Positions 1 to 49,670 of a stretch of 64,000 nucleotides of DNA are shown here, one piece after another. Origin of the DNA: an uncultured Acidimicrobiales bacterium (GTDB lineage Bacteria > Actinomycetota > Acidimicrobiia > Acidimicrobiales > SHLQ01); contig CAJQNJ010000086.1 in the NCBI GenBank assembly GCA_905479685.1, forward strand, positions 3,921-67,920, given 5' to 3'. Under the pieces are notes generated by a model. The model ran no database searches. It was given only the letters and a program-made list of their open reading frames with translations, and had not been told where the DNA came from. Both the position numbers and the translations under genes were made by a program. Positions within the stretch are counted from its first letter, which is position 1. Every line of letters begins with the position of its first letter.

Positions 1-266
1 GCGTAGGCATCACCCACTTCGAAGGTGACGTTGTGGGCAGCCTCAGGCATGAAATCGTCCGATACGTCGATCCCCACGACGCGTCCTGGAGCGACACGTT
101 CTCCGATCTCGAGCGTGATCGTGCCCGGGCCGCAGCCCACATCGAGCACCGAAACGCCTGACACGAGATGTGGAATGAGGTACGCCGCGGAGTTCTCGAC
201 GGTTCTCTGGTTGTGTGAACGCAGCACGCTTGCGTGATGGCCATGGGTGTACGTGTCTTCGGGCAT
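1..266 (-). CDS. class I SAM-dependent methyltransferase, N-terminal part (gene runs off the window start)
   Basis: Not in the ORF track because there is no stop in the window. Reverse translation from ATG 266-264 reads MPEDTYTHGHHASVLRSHNQRTVENSAAYLIPHLVSGVSVLDVGCGPGTITLEIGERVAPGRVVGIDVSDDF. VLDVGCGPG is SAM-binding motif I. Confidence 0.7.
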   Translation of the reverse strand, partial: MPEDTYTHGHHASVLRSHNQRTVENSAAYLIPHLVSGVSVLDVGCGPGTITLEIGERVAPGRVVGIDVSDDFMPEAAHNVTFEVGDAY

Positions 267-323
267 CTCCCCACTATTGCCGATGACATCCGGGTTCGAG
301 GTGCGCACACGAAACCAAGCTGG

Positions 324-1865
324 CTAGGACAGGATCACTCCAGCGCTCTCCAGTTGTGTCTCGAAGAGATCCGAGGCGAGAAGCGCTTCGGCACGGCTCA
401 GGTCTGGAGCGAGATACCGATCGGGCCCAGGTCCGTCCACCTCTTGACGCAGCGCCGCGATCACTACAGCGGTGGCGACGGCTGGCTCGAGCGGGGCACG
501 CAAGTCGATCGCCCGAGCGGCGATCACCAATTCGATGGCAAGGATCCGTCGCACGTTGTCGATGACCCGCCGAAGCTTTCGTGCGGCCCCCCACGCCATC
601 GATACATGATCCTCTTGCATTCCCGATGTGGGGAGCGAATCGACAGATGCCGGTACGGAGAGTCGTTTGTTCTCAGATGCCATCGCTGCTGCCGTGTAGT
701 GCCCGATCATCAGACCGCTGTCGACGCCCACCTCGCTCGCCAAGAACGGAGGCAGTCCGTGGTTGCGAGTCTTGTCGAGAAGCCGATCCATACGCCGCTC
801 GGCGATGGCTCCGATCTCCGAGACTGCGATGGCGAGGAAGTCGGCGCCGAACCCCAATGGGGCGCCGTGGAAGTTTCCGCACGATTCGACTCGACCATCG
901 GGGAGGACCATTGGATTGTCGATCGCAGATGCCAGTTCATTCTCTGCGACCCGACGGACATGGTCGAGCGTGTCTCGTACCGCACCGTGGACCGATGGCG
1001 TACACCGAACCGAGTAGGCGTCCTGGACCCGAACGTCGTCCGACTTGTGACTCGCAACGATCGGCGAGTCCTCGAGCATCAACCGCAGGTTCGCAGCGCT
1101 GACTGCCTGGCCCGGTTGCGGCCGCAGCTGTTGTAGGTCATCGGCGAAGGGACCGTCGGTCGCAAGAAGGCCCTCCACCGTTAGCGCAGCGATCATGTCG
1201 GCCTGCATTACGAGCCGACTCGAGTCGTCGATGGCGAGGCACAACATTCCGAGAATCGCATCGGTTCCGTTGGTGACCGAGAGACCCTCCTTTTCATGTA
1301 GGACGAGCGGTTCGAGCCCGGCGTCGCGGAGCGCACCGGCCGCATGGCACCGCTCTCCCGCGACATGCACCTCTCCCTCACCCATCAGTGCCAAGGCGCC
1401 ATGGGCAAGCGGCGCCAGATCGCCGCTTGCACCGAGCGAGCCGTACTCGGGGACGATCGGCGTGATGTCGGCATTGAGCGCATCGACCATCGCCTGGGCA
1501 ACGCGTGGCCGCGCCCCACTCGCTCCGAGGGCAAGCGTCCGCGCCCGCAGCAGCATCATGGCCCGGACCACTTCGTCCTCGACAGGATCGCCCATACCAG
1601 CCGCATGCGACCGGACGAGGGCGACCTGAAGGGCCTGGCGACGATCGCGTGGGATCGAGACTGTGGCGAGTGCGCCGAACCCAGTTGAGATGCCGTATTT
1701 CGGTTCTCCCTCTGCAAGTCGGTCGACGATGTCTCGGGCAGCAGACATCCGTTCGATCGCTTCGCGGGACAATTCGACTCTGGCGCTCTCACGGGCGACC
1801 GCGACCACGTCGGCGATGGTGACGCCCGGACCGTGAAGTTGAATCGTTTCCTGGTCCTGTGTCAT
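324..1865 (-). CDS. hutH: histidine ammonia-lyase
   Basis: 513 aa. GSLGASGDLAPLAH contains the Ala-Ser-Gly triad that forms the MIO cofactor of aromatic amino-acid ammonia-lyases. The rest is full-length HAL-like sequence. ATG 1865 overlaps the stop of the upstream IclR gene (ATGA). Confidence 0.93.
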   Translation of the reverse strand: MTQDQETIQLHGPGVTIADVVAVARESARVELSREAIERMSAARDIVDRLAEGEPKYGISTGFGALATVSIPRDRRQALQVALVRSHAAGMGDPVEDEVVRAMMLLRARTLALGASGARPRVAQAMVDALNADITPIVPEYGSLGASGDLAPLAHGALALMGEGEVHVAGERCHAAGALRDAGLEPLVLHEKEGLSVTNGTDAILGMLCLAIDDSSRLVMQADMIAALTVEGLLATDGPFADDLQQLRPQPGQAVSAANLRLMLEDSPIVASHKSDDVRVQDAYSVRCTPSVHGAVRDTLDHVRRVAENELASAIDNPMVLPDGRVESCGNFHGAPLGFGADFLAIAVSEIGAIAERRMDRLLDKTRNHGLPPFLASEVGVDSGLMIGHYTAAAMASENKRLSVPASVDSLPTSGMQEDHVSMAWGAARKLRRVIDNVRRILAIELVIAARAIDLRAPLEPAVATAVVIAALRQEVDGPGPDRYLAPDLSRAEALLASDLFETQLESAGVILS

Positions 1866-2650
1866 GAGGCCTTCGTCTCTGTCGTGGATATCGAGTCGGT
1901 TGTCGAAGCGCCGAGGTGTGCAGCCTCGAGGAGGCCGAGGTCTTGCGACAGTTGTGACACCACGTCGTGCAAGGACACTGCGATGTTTTCACACGTTGCA
2001 TCATCGAGCCGATGGGCCGGTCCGATGACCGAGAGCGCTATACCTAGACTCCCGTACGGCGGCAGCGCCATCGAGATCGCAGTGATGTCGGGCTCGACCA
2101 CTCCAGTCCGAATCGCGACCTTGCCCGGTTCGCGCAGCGCAGCCCCGATCGCGGTACCCGAGAGCGTCACGTTCTGCCCGACCCAACCAACGTGGCGTAT
2201 CGCTCGGCTGCTCTCTGCCGATGCGATGTACGTTGCGATTCCCGTATCGCTCACAGCCAGGTATGCCGATTCGCTGGTTTCGGTCGTCAGCCCATCGAGA
2301 TGAGGTTGTGCGAGTTCGGTGAGCCGTTCAAGGGGTGGGGAGTCATGAAGCCCAGCAGCCAACCGTAAGATCGTCGGCCCCGGCGAGAACACTCCCGAGG
2401 AGTCCCGGTCCAGGTACCCCCGCGCCTCGAGCGCCCGAAGGTGTCGTAGCGCTGTCGTGGGTGTCAGTCCTGCATGTGCCGACGCGGTCGTCAGCGTGCA
2501 GGCGCGCTCGGCAAGGACGACCTCGAGTAGATCGAGCACTCGACCAACCGCCCGTGGTACTGGTTGTCCTCCAGGTTCGGCATCACCATCCGCTGTGCTG
2601 TTGGATCTCATGACTCCGAATCCGTGTACCAAAATGTCATCTGCTGACAC
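1862..2650 (-). CDS. IclR-family transcriptional regulator (likely hut regulator)
   Basis: 262 aa. N-terminal winged HTH (VLDLLEVVLAERACTLTTASAHAGLTPTTALRHLRALEARGYLDRD) followed by an IclR-type effector domain. Divergent from hutU and coupled to hutH. Start is GTG 2650 or ATG 2611. Confidence 0.8.
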   Translation of the reverse strand: MSADDILVHGFGVMRSNSTADGDAEPGGQPVPRAVGRVLDLLEVVLAERACTLTTASAHAGLTPTTALRHLRALEARGYLDRDSSGVFSPGPTILRLAAGLHDSPPLERLTELAQPHLDGLTTETSESAYLAVSDTGIATYIASAESSRAIRHVGWVGQNVTLSGTAIGAALREPGKVAIRTGVVEPDITAISMALPPYGSLGIALSVIGPAHRLDDATCENIAVSLHDVVSQLSQDLGLLEAAHLGASTTDSISTTETKAS

Positions 2651-2700
2651 TAGCTGTTATCTATTGACAATCTAGGGAATCATCCCGCAGGCTGCAAGAC

Positions 2701-4380
2701 ATGACGTCACGACTTGGTACACCCGTCACGAACATCTCCGCTCCACGCGGTACCGACCTCAGTTGCAAGGGGTGGCCTCAAGAGGCCGCGTATCGGATGC
2801 TGCAGAACAACCTCGATCCAGAGGTGGCGGAGAATCCAGACGAACTCGTGGTGTATGGAGGCACCGGCCGCGCGGCCCGCTCATGGGACGCCTATCGGGC
2901 GATGCTGCACACGCTGACCACACTCGAACGAGACGAGACGATGTTGGTGCAGTCGGGCAAACCCGTAGGGGTTCTTCGCACCCACGAATGGGCACCAAGA
3001 GTGCTCATCGCCAACTCCAACCTGGTCCCTGATTGGGCCAACTGGGACGAGTTCCGCAGACTCGAACATCTTGGTCTCACGATGTACGGCCAGATGACGG
3101 CAGGGTCCTGGATCTACATCGGTACCCAGGGAATCCTTCAGGGAACGTATGAGTGTTTCGCTGAGATCGCGCGGAAACGTTTCGGCGGTTCGCTGCGCGG
3201 CACGCTGACCATCACCGCCGGCGCCGGAGGAATGGGTGGTGCCCAACCGCTCGCCGTGACGATGAACGACGGCGTCGTATTGGTCATCGACGTCAGCAAA
3301 CACATGCTCGAGCGGCGAGTCGACCATCGTTACCTCGATGAGATCGCCCCCGACTACGCGACCGCCATTACCCGAGTGACCGAGGCGAAAGCGACGCGGA
3401 CACCGTTGTCGGTCGGTCTCTTGGGAAATGCCGCAGACATCTTGCCTCGATTGCTCGCCGACGGGATCGAGGCCGACATCGTCACCGACCAGACCAGCGC
3501 CCATGACCCCCTGAGTTATGCACCGAATGACCTCTCTGCCGAGGCGGCAGAAGCGTTGAAGGCGGACGATCCCACCGAGTTCACACGCCGATCACGCGCT
3601 GCAATGGCAACACACTGCCAGGCGATGGTTGGCTTCATGGACGCTGGTGCCGAAGTCTTCGACTACGGAAACAGCCTTCGTGCTGAAGCCAAACTTGGCG
3701 GATTCGACCGAGCGTTCGACTACCCGGGTTTCCTCCCGGCGTACATTCGGCCGCTCTTTTGTGAAGGACTTGGCCCCTTTCGCTGGGTGGCCTTGTCCGG
3801 AGATCCCGCTGACATCGCTGCCACCGATCGAGCTGTCCTCGAGGAGTTCCCAGAGAACGAGTCGCTCGCAAAGTGGATTCGCTTGGCTGGCGAGCGAGTG
3901 GCGTTCCAGGGACTGCCAGCACGCATCTGCTGGCTCGGATACGGCGAACGGCATCGACTCGGGCTTCGATTCAACGAAATGGTCCGCACAGGTGAGCTGA
4001 AGGCCCCAGTCGTGATCGGACGCGACCACCTCGATTCGGGGTCTGTCGCATCGCCGTACCGCGAAACCGAAGCCATGCTCGACGGGTCGGACGCAATCGC
4101 AGACTGGCCGCTCCTCAACGGCCTCGTCAACACGTGTTCGGGCGCGACCTGGGTGAGCGTGCACCATGGCGGCGGTGTTGGCATCGGCCGATCGATCCAC
4201 GCAGGTCAGGTGAGTGTCGCCGACGGGACCCCGCTTGCCGCGGAGAAACTCGAACGTGTGCTGACCAACGACCCTGCTATGGGAGTGATTCGACACGTCG
4301 ACGCTGGATACGATCGCGCGATCGAGGTTGCCGACGAGCGCGGCGTACGAGTACCCATGAACGAACAGCCTGCAACATGA
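2701..4380 (+). CDS. hutU: urocanate hydratase
   Basis: 559 aa, full-length urocanase-like sequence with the NAD-binding stretch [20 protein letters not shown] and conserved C-terminal HHGGGVGIG. Confidence 0.95.
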
Positions 4381-4949
4381 CGGTCCGAACAATTCTCACC
4401 ATCGGCGATCCAGAGTTGCGGCGGCGTGCCGAGGAGGTGGATCTGGCACAGATTGCTTCGGCTCCCGTGCAGAGGATCATCGACGAACTGATCGCGACCA
4501 TGCGTGATGCGAACGGCGCAGGTTTGGCGGCCACGCAGATCGGCGAGCATGTTCGAATCGCGGTGATGGAGGTCGGCAACAATCCCCGTTACCCGTACAA
4601 ACCGAAGATCCCTTTGACGATCGCGATCAATCCGGTGATCGAACCGCTCGACGATGAACGCGTCGAGATCAATGAGGGCTGTCTCTCGGTTCCGCTACGC
4701 GGAGACGTGAGCCGATACGTGAACATTCGGGTCAAGTACCTCGATCGCGACGGGGTCGAACACGACGAAGTGAAACGTGGTCTCACCGCGGGAACGTGGC
4801 AACACGAGTGCGATCACCTCGACGGGGTGTTGTTCATCGATCGGGTTGCCGACCCGACCACACTTTCCACCTGGGATGAGTTCAACGAACACCATCGTGA
4901 TGCGTTCATCGAACGGATCACGGCCTTTGTGGAGCGGATCGGTTCATGA
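4377..4949 (+). CDS. def: peptide deformylase homologue embedded in the hut operon
   Basis: The ORF-track entry 4134..4949 is trimmed to ATG 4377 ([18 protein letters not shown]), which overlaps the hutU stop as ATGA. All three PDF motifs are present: [26 protein letters not shown]. The stop overlaps the hutF start (ATGA 4946-4949). Confidence 0.85.
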
Positions 4950-6283
4950 CCTCGTGGTGGTGCGAATATGCGCTCCTGGCCGATGGCGTTGCGCCCAGTG
5001 TGAGTATCACCGCCCGACATGGCCGGATCTCGGAGGCCGAACCGAACACCACGGCGCCAGAAGGTGCAACCCGTCTCGCCGGCTTGACCGTGCCCGGATT
5101 CGCGAACGCCCACAGCCATGCGTTCCACCGGGCTCTCCGCTCCCGTGTGCAGGCCGAGCGAGGCACGTTCTGGACGTGGCGCGACACGATGTATCGCGCT
5201 GCTCAACGGTTGAATCCCGACAACTACTACCGGCTCGCTCGTGCGGTATTCGCCGAGATGACACGTGCAGGAATATCGGTCGTTGGAGAGTTCCACTACG
5301 TCCACAACAGACCCGACGGAGGCTCGTACGACGATCCGAACGCGATGGGGGTGGCGCTACTCGCAGCCGCCGACGACGCCGGCATTCGCATCACCCTGCT
5401 CGACACGCTCTACCTGTTCGACGGGATGGACGAGCACCAATACCGCAACCCCGTCAACGTACAACATCGGTTCAGTGACCTCACGGGCGAGCGATGGGCA
5501 GCACGGCTGGCCGACCTTCGGGTGTCTCGAACCCAGCGCCTCGGAGCGGCCGTGCACTCCGCTCGAGCCGTGAACCCCACTGGGTTGTCGACGGCGGCAG
5601 AGTGGGCCAAGGACAACAACGCACCCCTCCATGCCCATGTCTCCGAACAGCGAGCTGAGAACGAAACGACACGTATCATGCACGGCTGCACCCCGACAGA
5701 ACTACTGGAGTCGGTCGGTGTGCTCGAAACCACGTTCACTGCGGTCCACGGAACCCATCTCACCGACCACGACATCGATCTCCTCGGATCATCCGAAAGT
5801 TCTGTCTGTATGTGTCCAACGACGGAACGTGACCTCGGCGATGGGATCGGGCCCACACGAGAATTGACTGCTGCGGGTGTTTCGCTCTGTGTCGGTAGCG
5901 ATTCCCACGCGGTCATCGATCAGATGGTCGAGGCGCGAGCGGTCGAGCTCCACGAGCGTCTTCGGTCCGAACAACGCGGCGTGCACTCTGCTGGTGAGCT
6001 GATGCACATGGCAACCACGGCCGGTCACCGCAGCCTCGGCTGGGACGATGCTGGCGCGATCGCGGTCGGCAACCGAGCGGACTTGGTCACCATCTCCCTC
6101 ACCACCGCACGCACGGCGGGGGCATCGACCGATCTTCTCCTCGAGGCTGCTGTCTTTGCCTCGACCGAGAGCGACATCACGTCTGTGGTCATCGATGGGC
6201 GACAGGTGGCCACCGATGGAGAGCACGACCACATCGACGTCGCCGCCGAGCTCGACTCGTCGATCAGGGAGCTTCTCCAATGA
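4946..6283 (+). CDS. hutF: formimidoylglutamate deiminase (amidohydrolase superfamily)
   Basis: 445 aa. The N-terminus ([14 protein letters not shown] ... [16 protein letters not shown]) carries the HxH metal motif typical of HutF-type deiminases. Positioned between hutU and hutI. Confidence 0.85.
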
Positions 6284-7452
6284 CGCCATCGACTCGTTCT
6301 CTCGTGATCGACAACATCGGGTCGCTGATCACCAACGACCCCGAGCTTGGAATGGGACCGCTCGGCATCGTCGAACAGGCGTCTGTCGTCATCACCGACG
6401 GGATTGTCGAGGAGGTCGGACCGGCTGGCGCTGTCGCCGACGAGCGCATCGATGCCGAGGGCTCGTGTGTTCTGCCGGGATTCGTCGACTCGCACACCCA
6501 CCTGGTCTTCGCTGGCGATCGATCGGAGGAGTTCGCCAAACGTATGGCTGGCGAGCCGTACGACGGTGGCGGAATCCAGGTGACCACCGATGCAACGCGG
6601 TCAGCCCCGACCGAGCTGCTCGATCAGCTCGTCCGCCAGCGTCTTCGAGAAGCGCATCGAGCAGGTACAACCACGATCGAGATCAAGTCTGGGTACGGCC
6701 TCAACGTCGAGGATGAAGCTCGATCTCTCGAGATCGCCAACGCGTTCACGCCAGAAACGACATTCCTCGGCGCCCACCTCCTTCCGACCGAGTTCCGAGG
6801 CCGCGCCGATGCGTACATCGATCTCGTGTGCACCGAGATGCTCGCGGCCGCGGTTCCTCACGCTCGATGGGTCGATGCGTTCTGCGAAGATGGCGCGTTC
6901 GATGCCGATCAGTGCCGCGCGGTACTGGAGGCAGGGAAGTCGGCTGGCCTTGGTCTTCGGTTGCATGGCAACCAGCTCGGCACCGGGCCTGGAGTGCAAT
7001 TGGCGGTCGAGTGCGGATGTGCCGCTGTCGATCACTGCACACACCTCACCGACAGCGACGTCGAAGCCCTGGCGGGGAGCGACACGGTTGCGACGTTTCT
7101 CCCAGCAGCCGACTTCTCGACGCGCCAGCCGTATCCGGACGCACGCCGACTGCTCGACGCTGGGGCAACCGTGGCCATCGCCTCGAATTGCAATCCAGGG
7201 TCGAGCTACACGACGTCGATCTCGTTCTGTATCGCGGTCGCCGTTCGCGACATGCACATGACCATCGAGCAGGCGATACAGGCAGCCACCTCGGGGGGCG
7301 CCGCCGCGCTGCGACGACAAGACGTCGGCCGTCTCGCGCCCGGTTATGCCGGACACGCGACGATCCTCGACGCCCCAACTCATCATCACCTTGCGTACAG
7401 GCCCGGGGTGCCGTTGATCCGTCAAACGATCGGCCCGCTCGGATCGGTCTGA
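6280..7452 (+). CDS. hutI: imidazolonepropionase
   Basis: 390 aa. [20 protein letters not shown] and downstream amidohydrolase motifs are typical of HutI. ATGA overlap with the hutF stop. Confidence 0.93.
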
Positions 7453-7481
7453 GAGCTACTTCAGATCTGGCTCTGACACCC

Positions 7482-8696
7482 CTAGCCGTTCTTGATCTCT
7501 TCCACCGCGGCCAAGAACTCGTTGAGCAGTCGATCGATCTCGGCGTCACGCTCGGTTTCGATCACGCCGAGGAGGTCGTTGATCTCCTCGAGTCGAGGAT
7601 CGACTTCGAGTTCGGCTGCCACCCGGGCGTCTGCCCAGGCCTGCTCGGCCGCAGCGATGTCCTCTTCGATGGCAGCTCGCTCACCTTCGTCGTCGGTGCC
7701 TTCGAGTTCGATCTCTAGAGCCTCGATGACGCCTTCCCATTCGACAGCAAGCAGGTGGTGGGCCTCTTCGAGGGCAGCCAACAAGCCATCGCGCTCCTCT
7801 TCGAGTGGATTGATGAGCGCCTTCGCCTCGGCACGGACCTTGTCCTTGGCCACATGGACGGCTTCCTCGAGAGCCGCGATCGCCACCTGAGCCGCCTCTT
7901 CTTCTGCGGTCTTGCCGTCCTCTTTCGACTCTTCCTTCTTCGGTTCTTCTTTTTCGACCTTGGGCGTCTTGGTTTCGACGACTTCTTTCTCTTCGAGCTC
8001 TTGCTTGTCATCCGGGATCACCTTGTGCTCGGGAAGGTCGTCTTCCACGAACTTCTCGATGTCTTCGAACGTGTCCTTCTCCTCGGACTTCACGTCGTCT
8101 TCGAACGTGTCGTCATCCTCGAATTTCTTCTCGTCCTTCTCGTCCAGCTCGGACGCCTCGGTTGATTCTTCTTTGACGGGTTCGCTCGACTCGAGCTCGT
8201 CTTCTACGAATGCCAAAGCGTCGGGGTCCGATGGGACCTCGACCGTCTCGATCACGGCCGGCTTGTTGTCGGGAAGGAAGGGAACATCGACTGCACCAGT
8301 TGCATGGGCGCCTCCGATCGACGCGGCTGCGACAGTGGTCCCGATCACGACCTTTCCGCTCATCGTCGCCATGAAAGCTGCTGCATGTCCGATCATCGTG
8401 TTTCTCCTCACAGGTTTCGCCACTTCTGCGCCTGCTGCGGACAACACGGGTGTGTCAGCATCGGGCAACATGATTGGCTCAGGGGGGTGTGTGAGAGTCA
8501 CTCCGACGAACTCTGACAATGCCGCCGACGGAGCAGGCGTGTCGGTCATCTTCGGAAACGAACGAACCTCAGCGAACAGGTTCGCCACGTCGGCCAGTTC
8601 TGGCCGTTCAGACGTTCCATTGATGAGGTTTTCGACTTCTTCAGAGGAGAGCGTGTCGTTGTGCATCTCGAAGGAGGGATCGTTGAAATCGCTCAT
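7482..8696 (-). CDS. putative anti-sigma factor: single-pass membrane protein with a hyper-acidic coiled-coil C-terminal domain
   Basis: 404 aa. ATG 8696 overlaps the stop of the ECF sigma gene (ATGA). One hydrophobic segment (AAAFMATMSGKVVIGTTVAAASIGGAHA) is followed by about 270 aa rich in D/E/K with heptad-like stretches. No recognisable zinc-binding anti-sigma motif. Confidence 0.5.
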   Translation of the reverse strand: MSDFNDPSFEMHNDTLSSEEVENLINGTSERPELADVANLFAEVRSFPKMTDTPAPSAALSEFVGVTLTHPPEPIMLPDADTPVLSAAGAEVAKPVRRNTMIGHAAAFMATMSGKVVIGTTVAAASIGGAHATGAVDVPFLPDNKPAVIETVEVPSDPDALAFVEDELESSEPVKEESTEASELDEKDEKKFEDDDTFEDDVKSEEKDTFEDIEKFVEDDLPEHKVIPDDKQELEEKEVVETKTPKVEKEEPKKEESKEDGKTAEEEAAQVAIAALEEAVHVAKDKVRAEAKALINPLEEERDGLLAALEEAHHLLAVEWEGVIEALEIELEGTDDEGERAAIEEDIAAAEQAWADARVAAELEVDPRLEEINDLLGVIETERDAEIDRLLNEFLAAVEEIKNG

Positions 8697-9280
8697 TGGG
8701 TTACGGCCTCCTCCGAAATTGTTCTGCGCAGTGCATTTGTCGCCCGGTGCTGCAATGCCTTGACGGCATTCACCGATCGACCGGTGACCATTGCGGTCTG
8801 CTCGAGCGACAGGTCCGCGATGAGGCGCAGGTGCATCACTTCACGCTGCTCATCGGTCAATGTGGCCAGGAGCGAAGTGGCGTCGGCACCAATCCTCGAT
8901 AGCGCATCGGACTCGACGTCTCCTCCATGGCCGTCATCGTCCCTGACCAGCTGTCGAGTCGGCACTCGTCGACTCCTCGCTCGGTGTTCATCGATCAGCT
9001 TGTTGCGGGTAATGGCGAACAACATCGCAACGAAGGCATCCTCGTTACCGAAGAAGGTGTCCACCCGTCGGAATGCACCAAGAAATGCCTCATTTGTTAT
9101 CCCGTCAGCGTCGTCTGCCCCTTGGGCCCTGGCAAAGCCCGCCACCTGCCGACCAAATCGATTCCACAGCCACTCGAATCCGGGGGCCTGCCCAACGCGC
9201 GCTGCCGCGAGCGCACGTGCAAACGCTGGATCTCCCGTCCGGTCATCGATCACACGTCGGTATTCGACGACACCAGCCAT
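8693..9280 (-). CDS. ECF-type RNA polymerase sigma factor (sigma-70 family, regions 2 and 4)
   Basis: The C-terminal 195 aa of ORF 8693..9901 read as an ECF sigma. Region 2 is ITNEAFLGAFRRVDTF...MLFAITRNKLIDEHR. Region 4 HTH is LTDEQREVMHLRLIADLSLEQTAMVTGRSVNAVKALQHRA. Start set at ATG 9280, with ATG 9391 as alternative. The longer N-terminal extension is not protein-like. Confidence 0.8.
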   Translation of the reverse strand: MAGVVEYRRVIDDRTGDPAFARALAAARVGQAPGFEWLWNRFGRQVAGFARAQGADDADGITNEAFLGAFRRVDTFFGNEDAFVAMLFAITRNKLIDEHRARSRRVPTRQLVRDDDGHGGDVESDALSRIGADATSLLATLTDEQREVMHLRLIADLSLEQTAMVTGRSVNAVKALQHRATNALRRTISEEAVTQ

Positions 9281-9841
9281 CTTCTTGAGCGTGCCGGGAC
9301 TCAGCCCATGGGGCGTCACGCAAGCCACAGTGCCACTCCGAAGATCGAATGTGTACGAACATCGAAAGACGCCCCAGACCCTCGACGTCATGGAACTGCC
9401 CCTCACCGTGGCCTGACGGTAGTGTTCTGGCCGGTGAACACCCTCATACCCCGACTCACATACCGGCTCAAGCGGTCGATTCGAGACCGACGCTGGCGAA
9501 CAACAGCGCAACCGGAACTCCCCTCGCCGTACAGCCAGTGGCACGGTCCGGCGGCAAGTGTGCGGTTCGGACTCGTGGTCACTCCGGTGGCCGACATCGT
9601 GCTGCTTCAAGGATCGGCGCCTGCCAGCGTTGCGGTCCAACTCGAGTTCGATGACACTGCACACACAATCATCGAGGTTGCGCATCGATTTCCACATCCA
9701 ACTCGACCCAATGGCGCCCAAACCTGTTTCGAGACAACGATCGACAGCTCCTCTGTGCCGGGCGCATCGAGGTGTCGGGCGATGTCCGGTAGCGACATCG
9801 GAGATTGGAAATTTCTTCCCGCATTCCCCCCACCGGGCTCC

Positions 9842-10657
9842 ATGACCGGCCAAGAACGCATCGCTCGGTGTCCAGCGTGCAGGTCTGGCGAGTTCACCCA
9901 CGCCGGTCGTCGGCAGTTCCTCGACATGGTCACCTGTGCGAGATGTGGGCTACTCATGACATCTCCGCGACCCATCGAGGACCAGACGCTGATCCGATAC
10001 AGCGAGCGGTACTTCACCGAGGAGTACCTCCCCGCCCAAGAAGTGACTCCAGCGTTGACTGCACACATCGATTCGATCCTCGATCGCGCTGAACCGGCCA
10101 AGAACGTATCCCCCACACTGTTCGAGCTCGGAATTGGTGGCGGCAATCTGTTGACGCGGGCTCGCGAACGAGGGTGGACGGTCGCAGGGACCGATGTAAA
10201 TCCTGCGTCGGTGACCCACGCAACGTCTCGCGGGTTACACGTCTGGTGCGAGAACTCCGACCATGCAGAGTCGCTCGGTGGTTCCTACGGCGCTGTCATC
10301 TCCGAGATGTCAATCGAACATGTTCGACATCCGGAGCGGTTCTGTCGACTGGCCGCTGAGGCTCTGCTTCCCGGTGGCCGGCTGGTGATCTACACAGTCA
10401 GCGCCGAAGGCGACTCGTTCGAACACTCCGGAATGGCCTCGCCGCTTGCGGGACCTGCTGAGCACCTGTTCATGTTCAGCACTGGTTCGCTCGTATCGCT
10501 TTGTCAACGGGCGGGCCTGCGGGTCGAGTCGGTCTGGCGGAATCACACCGCAGATGAGATCGGAATCATCGCGACGAAACGACGAGACACCGGGAACGCT
10601 GCAGTGGTGGCGTCTTCGACAGATGACTGGACCACTCAGCCGCAGGCCATTTCCTGA
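9842..10657 (+). CDS. class I SAM-dependent methyltransferase with N-terminal zinc-ribbon
   Basis: C-terminal part of ORF 8927..10657. Two CxxC pairs (CPACRSG ... CARCG) are followed by methyltransferase motif I LFELGIGGGNL and the post-I acidic residue (GTDVN). Start is ATG 9842 or ATG 9782. Confidence 0.7.
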   Translation: MTGQERIARCPACRSGEFTHAGRRQFLDMVTCARCGLLMTSPRPIEDQTLIRYSERYFTEEYLPAQEVTPALTAHIDSILDRAEPAKNVSPTLFELGIGGGNLLTRARERGWTVAGTDVNPASVTHATSRGLHVWCENSDHAESLGGSYGAVISEMSIEHVRHPERFCRLAAEALLPGGRLVIYTVSAEGDSFEHSGMASPLAGPAEHLFMFSTGSLVSLCQRAGLRVESVWRNHTADEIGIIATKRRDTGNAAVVASSTDDWTTQPQAIS

Positions 10658-44524: not shown

Positions 44525-45835
44525 ATGGCCGTCAATGAACGGTATGTCGTCCTTGGCGTCGCGCCGGTGCGACGCGAATGGTTCCGCCGCGTCGGCCGTT
44601 GGGCGAACGACGCGACGCTCCCGGTTGAGTTCGTGAAGTGCATCTCGACGACGGAAGTGATCTCGAGACTCGAATCGGGCCGTCCCTTCTCCGCGCTTCT
44701 CGCAGATGCTTCCTCAGCAGGACTCGATCGAGATGTGATCGATCTGGCCAACGCCGTTGGTTGCAGCCCGATCATCATCGACCACGGTTTGGTCGATCGC
44801 GACTGGCTGGAGTTGGGCGCACGAGCCGTGATGCCTGAACGTTTCGACTCTGGCGACCTTCAAGGGCTACTCGAAGAACACGCGATCCCGATCGGGCGAG
44901 GTGACTCGGCTACCGCCAGCACCACGCAGGATGCGGGCAACGATGGTCGCCATGGTCGCGTGGTGACGGTCACCGGGGCCGGTGGGCTGGGTAGTTCGAC
45001 CATCGCCATGGCTCTCGCTCAAGGACTGGTCACGTTCGGTCAACGTCAACCGCTGCTGCTTGCAGACATGGCGCTGCGTTCGTCGCAGGCGATGCTGCAC
45101 GATGCGCGCGACGTCGTCCCGGGGCTGACGGAGTTGATCGAGAGCCACCGACTCGGCGTCCCGAATCCAACCGATGCTGGCGCAACGATCCACACATTCC
45201 CCGAGCGCGGGTACGACCTTCTCTTGGGCCTACGGCATGAGCGGGACTGGATCTCCATTGCACCCCGAGCCCTCTCCGCAACGTGGACGACGCTCACCAA
45301 TCGCTACGAGACAACGGTCTGCGATGTGACCGGCGACCTGGACGGAGCGTCAGAAACTGGTTCGAACGACATCGAGGACAGGAATCGTCTTGCTCGAATG
45401 GCGGTCCGTCAGGCAGACCTTGTCCTCGTGGTCGGCGCTGGTGGTGCGTGGGGGATCCACCATCTCGTCCGGACGATTCTCGCCCTGATCGATATCGGCG
45501 TCACAGCTCACCGTTTGATGCCGGTTGTGAATCATGCTCCTCGACAGCCACGAGCACGAGCTGCGATCACCGGGGCAGTTGGAGATCTCTTGCTGACCCG
45601 AGTCGCCGATGCCCACCTCGTCCCGAGCCCACTGTTCGTTCCGACACGGCGAAGCCTCGAAGCAGCCCTCCGAGACGGCGACCCGATTCCATCTGGCATC
45701 GCTAGCCCGCTGTCTGCGGCCGTCGATGCCATGCTCGAACGTCAGCAATCTCATGACGGGCCAGCGCACCGCGCTCTATCTGGTCCTCCTGCCGTCGTCC
45801 CGGGATCGGTCGGCACATGGAGCGAAACACCATGA
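44525..45835 (+). CDS. TadZ/CpaE-like (Ssd-like) ParA/MinD-superfamily protein with receiver-like N-domain and degenerate Walker A
   Basis: Start at ATG 44525. The N-terminal ~125 aa are receiver-like. The P-loop region reads VVTVTGAGGLGSSTIAMALAQ and has no Lys. Position between cpaB and tadA. Confidence 0.7.
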   Translation: MAVNERYVVLGVAPVRREWFRRVGRWANDATLPVEFVKCISTTEVISRLESGRPFSALLADASSAGLDRDVIDLANAVGCSPIIIDHGLVDRDWLELGARAVMPERFDSGDLQGLLEEHAIPIGRGDSATASTTQDAGNDGRHGRVVTVTGAGGLGSSTIAMALAQGLVTFGQRQPLLLADMALRSSQAMLHDARDVVPGLTELIESHRLGVPNPTDAGATIHTFPERGYDLLLGLRHERDWISIAPRALSATWTTLTNRYETTVCDVTGDLDGASETGSNDIEDRNRLARMAVRQADLVLVVGAGGAWGIHHLVRTILALIDIGVTAHRLMPVVNHAPRQPRARAAITGAVGDLLLTRVADAHLVPSPLFVPTRRSLEAALRDGDPIPSGIASPLSAAVDAMLERQQSHDGPAHRALSGPPAVVPGSVGTWSETP

Positions 45836-47181
45836 CTGATCGCAGGACCGAGCACATTGAGTTGTCACCACTCGAAGAGATCGAGCGATTGACCCTCGAG
45901 GTTGCCAAGGAGCGAAATCTCTCCCCCGGAATGGCCGATGCCGAAGGTGAGCTTCGATCGATCGTCGTGGAACTTGTCGAACAGTGGCGGGACGACTTCC
46001 GGCGGGGCATTCGGCAGCTCGACCTCACAGAACCAACTGCCGTTGTGGATCGAGCGATGACGAACCTCACGGGCTATGGCCCGCTTGCGGCACTTTTGGC
46101 TGACGACGACGTCTGGGAGATCATGCTGAATGCCCCCGATCAGATCTTCGTGAAGCGTCATTGCGGCCCATCGGGATATCACCATGAGTCGTTTCACGAC
46201 GATGCTCATGTGCTCCGGACGATGACACGAATCGTCGATCGCTCGAGTGGAGCACATCGGGCTCTCGACCCAACGTCAGGGCTGCAGGATGCGCAACTCG
46301 ACAATGGATCTCGGCTCCACATCGTGCATGGCGACATCGCTCGGGGTGGACACCTGATCGTGAACATCCGCAAGTTCACCGGGATGTCGTTCAGGTCCCT
46401 CGACGAACTCGTGGCGTCGAACACGCTGACTGTCGAAAGTGCGAACTTTCTGCGTGCGTGTGTACAAGCCAGTCTGTCGATGGTGTTCGCCGGCGTTCCT
46501 GGTGCTGGCAAAACGACGCTCATGTCCTGTTGCGCCGCTGAGTTGGACCCGACCTTGCGCGTTGTTGTCGCAGAAGAAGTCTTCGAGGCCGATGTACCGC
46601 TCCCGAATGTGGCGAGCATGCAGACTCGAGGCGCTCGGCCCGACCGTCCAGGAATCGATCTTCGAACTCTCGTGAGTGGATTTCTCCGGATGGCTCCAGA
46701 CGTCGCAATCGTCGGGGAGGTGCGCGATAAAGAAGCTCTTCCGTTGATGATGACCCTGTCGAGTGGTGTCACTGGGTTCACGACGATCCATGCCGGTTCT
46801 GCACGTCAAGCGCTGACGCGACTTCGTTTTGTGTGCCAGTTGGCGGAGACCTCGAGTGACATCCCGATGGCCGCGCTCAACGATCTGGTTTCTCAGGCTG
46901 TCGATGTCGTGGTCCACACGATCCGGACACCCGAGGGACCGCGTGTGAATCAGATCGCATGCGTCGAAGACCTCACGGCATCAACCGGCGGCACAAGTTT
47001 CACCATGACCGAGGTATTCAAACGCAACCCACACTCTGGACGTCTCGAATGGACAGGCCATGTTCCGCACCGAGCCGCTGAGGGCTTGGCCGAAGCTGGC
47101 ATCGATATCCGGGCGGTTCTGCCGCATGGTGCCCCGATGCGACCGCCACGCGGCGATGGCACACAGGCAGGACCACCATGA
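45832..47181 (+). CDS. tadA: Tad secretion ATPase TadA/CpaF (type II/IV secretion NTPase)
   Basis: ATG 45832 overlaps the upstream stop (ATGA). Walker A is GVPGAGKTTLM. The Asp box, Walker B (VVAEEVFE ... IVGEVRD) and His box (TIHAGSA) are present. Confidence 0.92.
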   Translation: MTDRRTEHIELSPLEEIERLTLEVAKERNLSPGMADAEGELRSIVVELVEQWRDDFRRGIRQLDLTEPTAVVDRAMTNLTGYGPLAALLADDDVWEIMLNAPDQIFVKRHCGPSGYHHESFHDDAHVLRTMTRIVDRSSGAHRALDPTSGLQDAQLDNGSRLHIVHGDIARGGHLIVNIRKFTGMSFRSLDELVASNTLTVESANFLRACVQASLSMVFAGVPGAGKTTLMSCCAAELDPTLRVVVAEEVFEADVPLPNVASMQTRGARPDRPGIDLRTLVSGFLRMAPDVAIVGEVRDKEALPLMMTLSSGVTGFTTIHAGSARQALTRLRFVCQLAETSSDIPMAALNDLVSQAVDVVVHTIRTPEGPRVNQIACVEDLTASTGGTSFTMTEVFKRNPHSGRLEWTGHVPHRAAEGLAEAGIDIRAVLPHGAPMRPPRGDGTQAGPP

Positions 47182-48059
47182 TCGCCGGGATACTCATCCT
47201 TGCGTTGCTCGGCGGGTATGGCGTGCACCTCGTGTACTCGTCCGCGGTGTACGGGTGGAGCGGTGTGCAACCTGGTCCCGAGGCGCCGAAGCTGAAACAA
47301 GATCAGGTCGGCCGGCTGCTTTCCTCGCTGGGACTTGGTGATTTCGATCCTCGAGCGCTGCTCGCCGCAGTCTTCGTGCTCGCCCTTCTCGGCTTTGCGT
47401 TCGGAACGCTGTTGTTCGGAGGGTTTGCGCCTGCGCTGATCATCGCCCTGTTCGCGGCCACTGCGCCCGTCGGAGTTGCACGGATGCGACACGAACGGTT
47501 GATCGCACACGCCCATCGTTCATGGCCGGCACTCATCGAAGAGATCCGGCTGCTCACCGGGACACTCGGTCGATCGATACCGCAGGCGACCTTCGAGGTC
47601 GGGGCACGAGCACCCGATGGGCTCCGACCCGCATTCGCCGATGCGCATCGAGAGTGGCTGATCTCCACAGACTTCGGCCGTTCGCTCGAGGTTCTCAAAT
47701 CTCGTCTGGCCCATAACACTGCCGACATCGTCGCCGAGACGTTGATGACGGCGCACGAACTCGGTGGCGGTGAGGTCGGCAATCGCCTCGCTGCACTCGC
47801 GCAGGATCGTATGACCGATCAGCAACATCGACGTGATGCTGTTGCTCGACAGGCCGGGGTCAAATTCGCTCGCTGGTTTACTCTGATCGTGCCGATCGGC
47901 ATGGCGATGACCGGTCTCACGATCGGAAATGGGCGCGAAGCGTACGCGACGCCCGTTGGGCAGCTACTCGTGGCATCGGCGCTCATGATGGTCATCGGGT
48001 GCTGGTTGTGGGCCGGCATCATCATGCGCATGCCCTCCGAGGAACGAGTCTTCCCGTGA
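47178..48059 (+). CDS. tadB: Tad pilus platform protein TadB (T2SS-F family)
   Basis: 293 aa with an ATGA overlap with tadA. An N-terminal TM, a cytoplasmic GspF-like domain and C-terminal TM helices. Confidence 0.8.
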   Translation: MIAGILILALLGGYGVHLVYSSAVYGWSGVQPGPEAPKLKQDQVGRLLSSLGLGDFDPRALLAAVFVLALLGFAFGTLLFGGFAPALIIALFAATAPVGVARMRHERLIAHAHRSWPALIEEIRLLTGTLGRSIPQATFEVGARAPDGLRPAFADAHREWLISTDFGRSLEVLKSRLAHNTADIVAETLMTAHELGGGEVGNRLAALAQDRMTDQQHRRDAVARQAGVKFARWFTLIVPIGMAMTGLTIGNGREAYATPVGQLLVASALMMVIGCWLWAGIIMRMPSEERVFP

Positions 48060-48955
48060 TTCGCCTGTTCGCAGCATCTTGCCTCTTGCTCTTCATCGGC
48101 TCGACGCTGGTCTTGAGCGAGCTCCGCTTGTTCAAGACGAAGTCGTTGTCCGCTCGGGTGTCTCCATACCTTCCAGGTGGGCGCAGCGTCCGCACTCGAG
48201 ACCCGCTTTCGCTCGAGAGTTTCGGCGAACTCCTCCGGCCACTCGCCGAGGCCTCGGGGGCGCTGGCCGCACGCGTTTTCGGCGTCAGCGAGGAATTGCC
48301 CAGGCGTCTGCGCCGGGTCCACTGGGACATCGACGCGTCAGGGTTTCGGGTTCGACAGATCGGATGGGCATTGGGCTCTGCGATGGTTGTTCTTGTCGTC
48401 GGTCTGGTGTTGGGCCTACCCGGACCTCTGGTGGCGATCGTCTCCTTGGGTGCGCCGCTGCTTGCGTTCCTCATCGTGGAACAGCAGCTGGCCAACGCAT
48501 CGGACAGATGGAAGGAGCGAACGTTCCAGGAACTCCCGGTGGTTGCCGAGCAGGTTGCGATGCTGCTCGGTTCGGGCTTCTCACTGGGCGCATCGCTCCA
48601 GCGAATCAGCGGCCGTGGTTCGGGGGTGATCGCCCGAGATCTCGAGATCGTCGTTCGTCGGATTCAGCACGGCTCGAGCGAGAGTGTTGCGTTGCGCGAA
48701 TGGGCGGACACCGTCGACGTCGATGCGGTCGGTCGATTCGTGAGCATCCTCGCGTTGAACAAGGAGGCGGGAGATCTCGGCAACATGGTCGCTGCTGAAG
48801 CGCGAACCGTTCGCGCCGAGGCCCACCGGGCACTCCTTGAATCGATTGAGAAGAAGAACCAACAGGTCTGGATACCTGTGACCCTCGCTGCGCTCGTCCC
48901 GGGCGTCATCTTGATGATGATCCCATTCATCACCGCACTGCGTGAGTTTGGTTGA
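48056..48955 (+). CDS. tadC: Tad pilus platform protein TadC (T2SS-F family)
   Basis: GTG 48056 overlaps the tadB stop (GTGA). Same architecture as TadB, with ELPVVAEQVAMLLGSGFSLGASL as the GspF-like core. Confidence 0.75.
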   Translation: MIRLFAASCLLLFIGSTLVLSELRLFKTKSLSARVSPYLPGGRSVRTRDPLSLESFGELLRPLAEASGALAARVFGVSEELPRRLRRVHWDIDASGFRVRQIGWALGSAMVVLVVGLVLGLPGPLVAIVSLGAPLLAFLIVEQQLANASDRWKERTFQELPVVAEQVAMLLGSGFSLGASLQRISGRGSGVIARDLEIVVRRIQHGSSESVALREWADTVDVDAVGRFVSILALNKEAGDLGNMVAAEARTVRAEAHRALLESIEKKNQQVWIPVTLAALVPGVILMMIPFITALREFG

Positions 48956-49039
48956 TCGGATTGAACGGTTTGGCCACACAACGTGGTGTCGTGGTAATAA
49001 CGAACCACGGCAGTGGACGGAAGAAAGAAGAAAGAAATC

Positions 49040-49264
49040 ATGGAAATGTCACGTGTGGTAGGCCGCCATCTCGGACTCATCGGAGTTCACCTGCGACGAG
49101 AACTTCGTGACCGGTGGGTCGACGACCGCGGTGAAGGAGTCATTTCGATGGCGATCGCGATCTTGATCATCGCGACGATCGGCGCAGCCATGTACTTGCT
49201 GTTCCAGGGCCTTGCCGAGTCCACGGGCAACAAGGCAGAAGACCAGATCAACAACATCGGCTGA
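49040..49264 (+). CDS. flp: Flp-family prepilin (non-canonical processing motif)
   Basis: 74 aa from ATG 49040, after an A/G-rich ggaagaaagaagaaagaa stretch. A charged leader ends in DDRG and is followed by the hydrophobic helix EGVISMAIAILIIATIGAAMYLLF. Position immediately after tadC. Confidence 0.6.
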   Translation: MEMSRVVGRHLGLIGVHLRRELRDRWVDDRGEGVISMAIAILIIATIGAAMYLLFQGLAESTGNKAEDQINNIG

Positions 49265-49274
49265 CCCAGTACCA

Positions 49275-49670
49275 ATGGTGAAGCGGGCCAGCAGCAGCTC
49301 GGCAACACGAGGTGAGCGAGGTTCCGGCATCCTCAGCATGTCGCTTGGTCTGGTGGTGTTCTTTACGCTCCTCGTGTTCGCCGTGCAGGTCATGTACAAC
49401 CTGTATGCCACGTCGGTGATCACCAGCCTTGCCCTCGACGCTGCGCGCGATGTCGCTGAGCGCGACGGGCCCACCAGCGGAGAAGCTGAGGCAGAGTTTC
49501 GACAGCACATCGGTGGCGACGTTTCGTTCGACATCGTTGTGATCGGCGATACGGTCCAGGCGTCCGTGCAATGGGAAACGCGGTCTCTGTTTCCATCGAT
49601 CAGTGATGCTCGGGCGTTCGGTGTTCTCGATCGAACCTTCGAAGTCAGGGTCGAGGAGCAGCAGGAGTGA
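49275..49670 (+). CDS. TadE-like pseudopilin
   Basis: 131 aa from ATG 49275. The leader ends in GERG and is followed by SGILSMSLGLVVFFTLLVFAVQV, the same RG-x-G-[VI][IL]-SM pattern as the flp gene. Confidence 0.65.
   Translation: MVKRASSSSATRGERGSGILSMSLGLVVFFTLLVFAVQVMYNLYATSVITSLALDAARDVAERDGPTSGEAEAEFRQHIGGDVSFDIVVIGDTVQASVQWETRSLFPSISDARAFGVLDRTFEVRVEEQQE

Follow-up and report, generated by a model that had tools for sequence, protein, structure and literature searches.

A 64-kb stretch of DNA from an uncultured Acidimicrobiales bacterium (the window, meaning the whole of this stretch) contains a gene for a peptide deformylase (PDF) homologue inside an operon for histidine utilisation (hut), which raises the question what a deformylase does in a catabolic pathway. 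The product of this gene (positions 4377–4949) is predicted to be a catalytically intact protein with the PDF fold, and it has probably been recruited as an N-formyl-L-glutamate deformylase, an analogue of HutG (EC 3.5.1.68), because it is located where the hut pathway is otherwise without an enzyme.

Organisation of the hut operon

At the left end of the cluster lies hutH (324–1865, reverse strand), encoding a histidine ammonia-lyase of 513 amino acids (PF00221; TIGR01225, 643 bits with a cut-off of 539). Its start is overlapped by a gene for an IclR-type transcriptional regulator (1862–2650, reverse strand, matching PF09339 and PF01614), probably the hut regulator; both genes are divergent from hutU. 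Most related loci have hutH in an equivalent relative position, and the IclR-type regulator is kept at the equivalent place in most Acidimicrobiia loci. A promoter-like site, CTGACA-16-GACAAT, is found at the 50-bp intergenic region between the IclR-type gene and hutU (2644–2671, forward strand). It is the sole sigma-70-like match within positions 1–9000, where 1.4 matches are expected by chance, so its role as the hutU promoter is only suggestive.

The forward strand continues with hutU (2701–4380), encoding a urocanate hydratase of 559 amino acids (TIGR01228, 894.7 bits, cut-off 375), which in profile searches stays under the cut-offs of the thiourocanate hydratase models. This is followed by the PDF-family gene (4377–4949, forward strand, 190 amino acids, PF01327), the candidate N-formyl-L-glutamate deformylase gene. 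Next comes hutF (4946–6283, forward strand), for a formimidoylglutamate deiminase of 445 amino acids (NF006681, 583.6 bits, cut-off 362; TIGR02022, 431.3 bits, cut-off 413), and then hutI (6280–7452, forward strand), for an imidazolonepropionase of 390 amino acids (TIGR01224, 341.8 bits, cut-off 298). The preliminary description of this DNA had these four genes chained by three ATGA start/stop overlaps, which can indeed be read in the sequence at 4377–4380 (hutU/PDF), 4946–4949 (PDF/hutF) and 6280–6283 (hutF/hutI). No internal promoter or terminator was found within the operon, the only terminator-like match (4815–4829) being inside the PDF coding region and below chance expectation. The GC content of the PDF gene, 0.60, is like that of the adjacent genes, with no sign of horizontal transfer in its composition.

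Sequence and predicted structure of the deformylase homologue

The longest open reading frame of the PDF gene opens at an upstream GTG codon (4134), but the ATG at 4377 is taken as the start because the N-terminus is conserved and the length is a uniform 190 amino acids in more than 100 homologues. The only Pfam match of the protein is PF01327 (E-value 8.5e-43, 146 bits, cut-off 22.8), and its only NCBIfam matches are peptide deformylase models (NF001159, 144.5 bits, cut-off 125; TIGR00079, 107.2 bits, cut-off 103.95). It has no match to the N-formylglutamate amidohydrolase (FGase, PF05013) or arginase (PF00491) families in either profile collection and is not a member of them. Wherever a source gives it a name, that name is 'peptide deformylase'.

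The preliminary description had also claimed that all catalytic and metal motifs are retained, and all three motifs are found in the translation, intact and invariant in the clade of hut-linked PDFs. Motif 1 (residues G47-A-G-L-A-A-T-Q54; 4515–4538, forward strand) is the motif for binding the substrate backbone and formyl group; Gly47, Ala48, Gly49 and Gln54 are among its invariant residues. Motif 2 (E100-G-C102-L-S104), containing the metal ligand Cys102, is directly preceded by Asn99 (4671–4688 with Asn99, forward strand). Motif 3, HExxH, which is HECDH in the window and comprises metal ligands and the catalytic glutamate, forms one segment with an altered S1' wall (G139-T140-W141-Q-H143-E144-C-D-H147; 4791–4817, forward strand). 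The motif 1 sequence GAGLAATQ was considered as a distinctive feature and rejected, its GAG and the Thr before Gln both occurring in ordinary PDFs, including those of Burkholderia and E. coli.

The AlphaFold2 model of the protein has a pLDDT of 91.5 and can be superposed on the Leptospira interrogans deformylase LiPDF (PDB entry 1SV2) with TM scores of 0.85–0.95 and an r.m.s.d. of about 1.1 Å. LiPDF (1SV2, 1SZZ) is a type 1B PDF with an enlarged CD loop, as are those of Burkholderia (5KOB) and Pseudomonas aeruginosa (6JF9–6JFN). The window protein is 42–45% identical to these enzymes and has in common with them the three catalytic motifs and the RYPxxP insertion in the CD loop. It differs in having Asn99 instead of Trp or Tyr, Arg134 where Glu, Asp or Ser is mostly present, Gly139-Thr140-Trp141 for Arg/Ile-Val-Val/Tyr, and Tyr74-Lys75 for Asp/Glu-Ala. 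In the subclade of the window protein one residue is missing after Pro106, and there is a conserved carboxy-terminal helix with the ending ...FVERxGS. The genomic context of the window gene is a catabolic operon and not a housekeeping one.

These properties raise the alternative of an ordinary PDF paralogue, acting on nascent fMet-peptides and kept among the hut genes for the sake of regulation or protection, so that deformylation is sustained, for instance, while histidine breakdown raises the level of formate or formyl compounds. Such a paralogue would be expected to score above the NCBIfam 'peptide deformylase' cut-offs, to have all catalytic residues intact and to resemble LiPDF, an active peptide deformylase according to the literature, in sequence and structure as closely as this one does. 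We consider it quite unlikely: no enzyme would be left for the N-formylglutamate step, and there would be no reason for the genomic linkage and residue changes described below.

Linkage to hut genes across genomes

Relatives were collected by a pattern scan, which identified 196 species genomes and misses diverged copies; the best 80 of these 196 were fetched. In 78 of these 80 Acidimicrobiia species loci the PDF gene is located among hut genes, extending the hutU-PDF-hutF arrangement beyond one strain. The order hutH-IclR / hutU-(PhyH)-PDF-(CMD)-hutF-hutI is seen in Candidatus Microthrix and on an Acidimicrobiales contig of 2.47 Mb. Another Acidimicrobiia lineage, with a 50%-identical PDF, has GntR-hutU-hutF-hutI-PDF-hutH, a GntR/UTRA regulator replacing the IclR type in the more distant lineage. 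Further orders occur in metagenome loci (hutH-hutU-PDF-hutF-hutI, hutU-hutF-PDF-hutI-hutH and PDF-hutH) and in marine Gammaproteobacteria (hutF-hutH-PDF-hutU). The linkage thus persists through six or more gene orders and across two phyla, with a regulator of either the IclR or the GntR type, and the claim that the PDF gene is an integral member of the hut operon is borne out in about a hundred loci.

When PDFs with Asn99 are considered, 97 of 99 informative loci are hut-linked, the two outside hut clusters being L062 and L067, and hutF is present in all 70 loci with 3 kb or more of sequence to either side; these association counts are not phylogenetically independent. In an independent set, hut linkage is seen for 19 of 19 Asn99-type PDFs, 2 of 16 PDFs of a sister type (YK, described below) and none of 19 canonical PDFs; one of the two hut-linked sister-type loci, L099, in fact belongs to the Asn99 type, its motif having escaped the parser. 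An ordinary paralogue would have no reason to accompany hutF so strictly while gene order, regulator type and phylum vary. Across the class, sequence identity is 67–85% for the PDF, 80–92% for hutU and 47–67% for hutF, a level of conservation in keeping with selection acting on the gene within the operon.

The carriers include Ilumatobacter-type Acidimicrobiia from marine and other environmental metagenomes and Candidatus Microthrix, a filament of activated sludge. The gene is present in the complete or near-complete sequences OZ244195.1, OZ244866.1, OZ242187.1, JAWPMS010000001.1 and CAWDNZ010000005.1, and Microthrix is represented by the assemblies GCA_017985055.1 and GCA_016705925.1. Genes of the PhyH family recur near the PDF, being present in 26 of the 80 genome loci, fused to HutU in L004 and represented by an orthologue in Gammaproteobacteria, and other oxygenase or desaturase genes are found near some PDF-bearing hut clusters. 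These neighbours would be consistent with a different small-molecule substrate from histidine-related catabolism, deformylated or hydrolysed in some other way, such as a PhyH or oxygenase product, N-formimidoyl-glutamate or another N-formyl amino acid. The window operon and 54 of the 80 loci have the PDF without PhyH, however, and the PDF therefore does not depend on PhyH. Moreover, N-formylglutamate is the formylated intermediate to be expected, because hutF is always present and passes the equivalog cut-offs. A different small-molecule substrate is accordingly unlikely.

Search for HutG and for a housekeeping deformylase

The preliminary description had reported that no HutG-type gene is present in the cluster or the window, and this holds for the 30 window open reading frames scanned with Pfam, among which no FGase (PF05013), arginase (PF00491) or M20 (PF01546) gene was found. 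The same three families are absent from every Pfam-annotated PDF-bearing hut cluster. Beyond the left edge of the window, about 7–10 kb known from other contigs contain no def, fmt, hutG, FGase, arginase or M20 gene. In the annotated clusters, hutF is thus present and no other enzyme for the formylglutamate step, which is the context of a gene with the role of HutG. The route via an arginase-family formimidoylglutamase would leave hutF superfluous.

Neither the 64-kb window nor some 1.3 Mb of related loci yielded a second PDF in tblastn searches, and fmt is absent from all Pfam-annotated loci. Of 20 of the nearest non-clade relatives, those with a name belong to Myxococcota, Vicinamibacteria and a Diplonema transcriptome, none of these being an Acidimicrobiia def. 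The absence of a second copy from these sequences would agree with the gene being the sole housekeeping deformylase, in the hut operon by chance. That is very improbable. Bacteria with formylated Met-tRNA cannot do without def, a gene often found in a def-fmt context, and its placement within a catabolic operon, under a regulator specific to that operon, would be odd. The hut linkage outlasts several rearrangements, so selection for co-expression with the hut genes would be needed. One metagenome-assembled genome has two clade copies (L038 and L067), and a hut-linked PDF is also present in Gammaproteobacteria, where a def-fmt pair is standard. That the pattern scan found the clade in no more than 196 species genomes points the same way, though weakly, as the scan misses diverged copies.

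Signature residues and the sister clade

A neighbour-joining tree, which has no bootstrap support, groups the hut-linked PDFs as a single clade; together with the residues at positions 99 and 134 this agrees with the earlier proposal of a separate clade of hut-embedded PDFs. When 80 hut-clade sequences are compared with 49 canonical relatives, Asn99 is present in 79 of the 80 and in none of the 49, where Trp or Tyr takes its place. Arg134 (4776–4778, forward strand), directly before the catalytic helix and at the position of E. coli Asp123, is found in 78 of the 80 and, within the independent set, in 18 of 19 PDFs with Asn99; the canonical relatives mostly have Glu, Ser or Asp here, and Arg in 5 of the 49. 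Tyr74-Lys75 of the CD-loop insertion (RYPYKP, with RYP[DE]AP in canonical relatives; 4596–4601, forward strand) is invariant in the 80 hut-clade sequences, while among the 49 canonical relatives Tyr does not occur and Lys is present in about 4%. All clade members likewise have Thr140 and Trp141, which no canonical relative has.

Substrate recognition by ordinary PDFs is driven by the hydrophobic S1' pocket, including the equivalents of Ile44 and Ile128; in AtPDF1B the pocket is lined by Ile42 and Ile130, of which Ile42 corresponds to E. coli Ile44 (PMC3101196). The correspondence of AtPDF1B Ile130 to E. coli Ile128 is taken from our own alignment. In the window protein, the E. coli S1' residues Ile44, Ile128 and Cys129 align with Ala48, Gly139 and Thr140, and E. 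coli Ile130 aligns with Trp141. Genuine PDFs often have alanine at the position of E. coli Ile44.

A sister clade, called YK/AGT (Nannocystis, Polyangiaceae and others), is 46–57% identical to the window protein and has the same RYPYKP loop, xAGT[FY]QHE helix, length and carboxy-terminal helix. Unlike the window protein, its members have Tyr or Phe at position 99 and usually Lys or His at position 134, and they are not hut-linked; their neighbours include topA, greA, a methyltransferase gene and an MA-clan peptidase gene. They are possibly ordinary PDFs, and a similar S1' wall in housekeeping-like contexts (topA, greA) is a point in favour of an ordinary paralogue in the hut operon as well. 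Because Ala48, the Gly139-Thr140 pair and Tyr74-Lys75 are all shared with this sister clade (Myxococcota and others), these residues alone are no mark of a new specificity. The distinctive residues of the hut-linked PDFs are Asn99 and Arg134, and their tracking of hut linkage is left unaccounted for if the protein is an ordinary paralogue. The gammaproteobacterial hut-linked PDF has neither of the two. The loss of a Gly after Pro106 was rejected as a hut-specific marker, as just 8 of the 19 PDFs with Asn99 in the independent set show this deletion. The sister clade was likewise rejected as the housekeeping def of Acidimicrobiia, in view of the named members given above.

Proposed function and comparison with known enzymes

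Recruitment of the PDF homologue as an N-formyl-L-glutamate deformylase would complete the pathway as follows. HutH would convert histidine to urocanate, HutU urocanate to imidazolonepropionate, HutI imidazolonepropionate to N-formimidoyl-glutamate, and HutF the latter to N-formyl-glutamate and ammonia. The PDF homologue would then hydrolyse N-formyl-glutamate to formate and glutamate by the usual PDF chemistry, with a metal bound by Cys102, His143 and His147, Glu144 as the general base, and the formyl carbonyl polarised by Gln54 and the backbone of Leu103. Asn99, Arg134, Lys75 and the Gly139/Thr140 wall may adapt the methionyl-peptide pocket to a small dicarboxylate. The genes hutU, PDF, hutF and hutI would be translated from a single mRNA with coupled stop and start codons, probably under the divergent IclR-type regulator.

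It is reasonably likely that the physiological substrate of the widespread Asn99/Arg134 PDF subfamily, and of a separate marine gammaproteobacterial lineage, is free N-formyl-L-glutamate and not a nascent peptide, and that, wherever there is no hutG, these proteins supply the formylglutamate step of the HutF route. The proposed reaction (N-formyl-L-glutamate + H2O to formate + glutamate) is identical to that of HutG (PF05013 / TIGR02017, for instance Pseudomonas hutG). Residence in a hut operon and a place downstream of HutF are also common to both, but there is no relationship in sequence or fold, the window protein being superimposable on peptide deformylases. If the function holds, the PDF would be a non-orthologous replacement of HutG.

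A candidate from a different family, COG0624, which we take to be the ArgE/DapE-type M20 peptidase group, was meant for the same missing step in hutF pathways without hutG. The preliminary description had mentioned an M20-type gene between hutU and hutF in other actinobacterial hut clusters. Its candidacy is on record, SEED listing COG0624 as 'alternative N-formylglutamate deformylase' in actinobacterial hut clusters, but the function did not stand, as the Streptomyces avermitilis protein showed no deformylase activity (PMC3223725). The position of the gene within the cluster is not given there. In the literature searched, including searches for actinobacterial alternatives to hutG, no description of a PDF homologue in histidine degradation was found, in keeping with the earlier remark that a deformylase recruited for formylglutamate is not known to have been described.

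Significance

To our knowledge, no PDF-fold enzyme with a catabolic role on a small molecule was known before. If the proposed function is true, a hole in the pathway would be closed, since organisms with hutF and without hutG have no assigned enzyme for N-formylglutamate, the M20 candidate having failed. The family would be a compact example of neofunctionalisation, its candidate specificity residues being few (Asn99, Arg134, Lys75 and Gly139/Thr140). Every database entry 'peptide deformylase' for the Asn99/Arg134 subfamily would be misnamed, and automated annotation would have to be corrected. The finding would also bear on the counting of def paralogues when deformylase inhibitors are judged, and it would affect reconstructions of histidine and nitrogen use for Ilumatobacter-type Acidimicrobiia and Candidatus Microthrix.

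The hut operon and its peptide deformylase homologue

In the window, hutH (324–1865) and an IclR-type regulator gene (1862–2650) are located on the minus strand, followed on the plus strand by hutU (2701–4380), the gene for a 190-residue peptide deformylase (PDF) homologue (4377–4949; PF01327, E 8.5e-43), hutF (4946–6283) and hutI (6280–7452). The four hut genes pass their NCBIfam equivalog cut-offs, hutU remaining below those of the thiourocanate-hydratase models, while the PDF homologue passes two "peptide deformylase" cut-offs, TIGR00079 barely (107.2 bits versus 103.95). The family assignments of hutH, hutU, PDF, hutF and hutI are firm. The ORF map and translations confirm the chain of hutU, PDF, hutF and hutI given in the preliminary description: each of the first three genes shares an ATGA with the next, its stop codon overlapping the following start, at 4377, 4946 and 6280. 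The base composition of the PDF gene is that of its neighbours. The catalytic and metal-binding motifs are indeed intact in the translation (G47AGLAATQ54, E100GCLS104 and H143ECDH147), with Cys102, His143 and His147 as metal ligands, Glu144 as the catalytic residue and Gln54 also present.

The 64-kb window contains no second PDF. The reported absence of a HutG-type gene holds for the 30 ORFs of the window that were searched with Pfam, none of which belongs to the FGase (PF05013), arginase (PF00491) or M20 (PF01546) families; these are also absent from the 7–10 kb past the left edge, as represented in marine metagenome contigs. A 404-residue ORF without Pfam or NCBIfam match (7482–8696, minus) converges on hutI. 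The ORF of an ECF-type sigma factor (8693–9901, minus) overlaps a methyltransferase ORF on the opposite strand (8927–10657); because related contigs call these at 330 and 291 residues, respectively, the starts in the window must be shorter. Genes for T2SSE (a type II/IV secretion ATPase) and a T2SSF-family membrane protein (45817–48955), followed by small ORFs (49013–51314), form a group that looks like a Tad-type pilus cluster. Other parts of the window carry common housekeeping genes (pyk, uppS, era, phoH, dnaJ, hrcA, holA).

Conservation in Acidimicrobiia

More than 120 homologue clusters share 73–99% identity with the PDF, nearly all with a length of exactly 190 residues; their named sources are Acidimicrobiales, Ilumatobacter and Candidatus Microthrix. 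The gene order is hutH-IclR / hutU-PhyH-PDF-CMD-hutF-hutI in Candidatus Microthrix and hutU::PhyH-PDF-hutF-hutI on a 2.47-Mb Acidimicrobiales contig. When a single genome from each species was scanned, 196 species contained a relative, and the best 80 of these 196 were compared. Seventy-eight of the 80 genomes carry an Acidimicrobiia or Actinomycetota label; the two labelled as other phyla are probably misbinned. In 78 of these best 80 loci, the PDF has hutU upstream, hutF-hutI downstream, or both, so the arrangement is not unique to one strain, a possibility that the preliminary description had raised. The two exceptions are orphan PDFs amid unrelated genes, both with Asn99 (see below): locus L062 (10001–10573), with neighbours including cupredoxin, sortase and NuoF-like genes, and L067 (3814–4455), near a 2-hydroxyacid dehydrogenase and a gluconolactonase-like gene, which is an extra copy in a MAG that also holds the hut-linked locus L038. 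In the 80 loci, identity to the window is 80–92% for hutU, 67–85% for PDF and 47–67% for hutF; the PDF is intermediate, the pattern expected of an operon member kept by purifying selection. The PDF-in-hut arrangement is real, strongly conserved and ancient within Acidimicrobiia.

A gene for a PhyH-family Fe(II)/2-oxoglutarate dioxygenase is present in 26 of these best 80 loci, and 15 of the 26 have it immediately between hutU and PDF; L004 contains the sole fusion (HutU::PhyH, 5479–8004, 841 residues). Other PhyH-family genes are at 7136–7993 of L001, the Candidatus Microthrix locus, and at 609–1436 and 5928–6755 of the gammaproteobacterial loci L111 and L171. In L001, a carboxymuconolactone-decarboxylase-family (CMD) gene (8741–9190) separates PDF from hutF, an insertion absent from the other 80 genome loci. 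Membrane di-iron oxygenase genes are also found near hut clusters: a desaturase in L130 and a hydroxylase in L004, where a fatty-acid-hydroxylase-family gene adjoins hutH.

Structure and residue signature

The nearest solved structures, at 42–45% identity, are the Leptospira interrogans (LiPDF), Burkholderia and P. aeruginosa type 1b enzymes, all true peptide deformylases with an enlarged CD loop. The AlphaFold model (pLDDT 91.5) superposes on LiPDF with a TM-score of 0.85–0.95 and an r.m.s.d. of about 1.1 Å. A comparison of 80 hut-clade sequences with 49 canonical relatives shows several features that vary little or not at all in the former and are essentially missing from the latter: Tyr74-Lys75 in the CD loop (RYPYKP; canonical RYP[DE]AP), Asn99 directly preceding EGCLS (canonical Trp/Tyr), Thr140 and Trp141 of the catalytic helix (E. 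coli Cys129 and Ile130), and the motif FVERxGS, which closes the carboxy-terminal helix. Further hallmarks of the hut clade are Gly139, at the position of E. coli Ile128, and Arg134, at that of E. coli Asp123. A sister clade, with Myxococcota as named members, has the same YK loop and Ala-Gly-Thr helix but carries Tyr/Phe at position 99 and Lys/His at position 134. Its neighbours are non-hut genes (topA-x-greA, or an MA-clan peptidase and a methyltransferase), so the loop and helix are not hut-specific.

Metagenome and other loci flanked by 1.5 kb or more make up an independent set, in which 19/19 Asn99-type, 2/16 sister-type and 0/19 canonical PDFs are hut-linked; once the genome loci are included, the Asn99 type stands at 97/99. 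One of the two sister-type cases is a parsing failure, being really Asn99, and the other is gammaproteobacterial. All 70 Asn99-type loci with 3 kb or more on each side contain hutF. Because the sequences are related, all these counts are descriptive. Asn99 and Arg134 together track hut linkage. In a neighbour-joining tree without support values, the Asn99 sequences with hut linkage group in a single clade, the separate grouping asked about in the preliminary description, with one non-hut sequence nested; this clade is sister to the Tyr/Phe99 clade, and both are apart from the canonical Trp99 group.

Among other homologues, P0179, from the EukProt transcriptome of the eukaryote Diplonema ambulator, has the RYPYKP loop and AGT helix and could be contamination, organellar or a transferred gene. 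P0175, P0181, P0223 and P0270 (about 335 residues, two PDF matches each) are apparently tandem PDF-PDF fusions, and P0225 is PDF-like with degraded catalytic motifs (ERCPS; QRAVDH).

Rearranged and distant clusters

P0274, a 50% identical protein from another Acidimicrobiia lineage, is encoded in the order GntR-hutU-hutF-hutI-PDF-hutH; gene order and regulator family differ from the window, but both are hut operons. A metagenome scan with a profile built from distant PDF relatives revealed hutH-hutU-PDF-hutF-hutI, PDF-hutH and, in L130 (4394–12279), HutD-hutU-hutF-PDF-hutI-(fatty-acid-desaturase-family gene)-hutH. More than 100 contigs of marine Gammaproteobacteria (Acidiferrobacteraceae and Arenicellales MAGs) show the order hutF-hutH-PDF-hutU, accompanied by hutI and a PhyH gene. 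The PDF of this lineage (L111, 4682–5260; L171–L174, 10001–10579) has Tyr99/Lys134 and branches inside the non-hut sister clade, which suggests independent recruitment or transfer. The PhyH protein of this cluster is an orthologue at 41% identity, and a HalD-like 2OG oxygenase gene follows hutU. No FGase, arginase-type or M20 gene occurs in any Pfam-annotated PDF-bearing cluster. One 90%-identity protein cluster mixes 192-residue PDFs with 511-residue histidine ammonia-lyases; this mixture is probably artefactual, caused by read-through or by gene calls fused across the adjacent hutH-PDF pair.

The hut-linked PDF might instead be the sole housekeeping def of these bacteria; about 1.3 Mb of related loci yielded no separate def. 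We regard this reading as very improbable, on indirect grounds: the gene belongs to a catabolic operon with its own regulator, its hut linkage persists through rearrangements, one MAG has two copies, and a hut-linked PDF also exists in Gammaproteobacteria, in which the def-fmt pair is standard.

Proposed function

The HutF route, the Pseudomonas-type pathway, gives N-formyl-L-glutamate, which must then be deformylated. Among the proteins of these operons, only the PDF homologue offers formyl-amide hydrolase chemistry, and its catalytic apparatus is complete. The most likely explanation, in which we have reasonable confidence, is that a PDF-fold enzyme has been recruited as an N-formylglutamate deformylase; it would remove the formyl group from the HutF product. 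In ordinary PDFs a hydrophobic S1' pocket, including AtPDF1B Ile42 (equated with E. coli Ile44) and Ile130, drives substrate recognition and active-site closure, and the LiPDF CD loop has been seen in several conformations, interpreted as a closed/open equilibrium (PMC3101196). Ile130 aligns with E. coli Ile128 in our alignment, and the two AtPDF1B positions are Ala48 and Gly139 in the window protein, adjoined by Thr140. A lysine is gained in the CD loop, and an arginine is located just before the catalytic helix. Judged from sequence, a substrate such as N-formylglutamate, a small dicarboxylate whose alpha-carboxylate is free, would plausibly need polar and basic contacts of this kind; the pocket change is partly common to the non-hut sister clade.

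In the literature we found no PDF homologue described as part of histidine degradation or as an actinobacterial hutG alternative, nor was a histidine-degradation PDF found in the literature on PDF paralogues and the LiPDF structure. The preliminary description mentioned an M20-type gene for some other hut clusters of actinobacteria; COG0624 is the ArgE/DapE-type M20 peptidase group. That mention fits the SEED proposal of COG0624 as an "alternative N-formylglutamate deformylase" for the pathway hole, which had been noticed earlier (PMC3223725), but the candidate is unproven, and the Streptomyces avermitilis COG0624 protein had no N-formylglutamate deformylase activity (PMC3223725, Table 3). What would be new for the hut-linked PDF is the pairing of a known fold, that of peptide deformylase, with a known reaction, the deformylation of N-formylglutamate.
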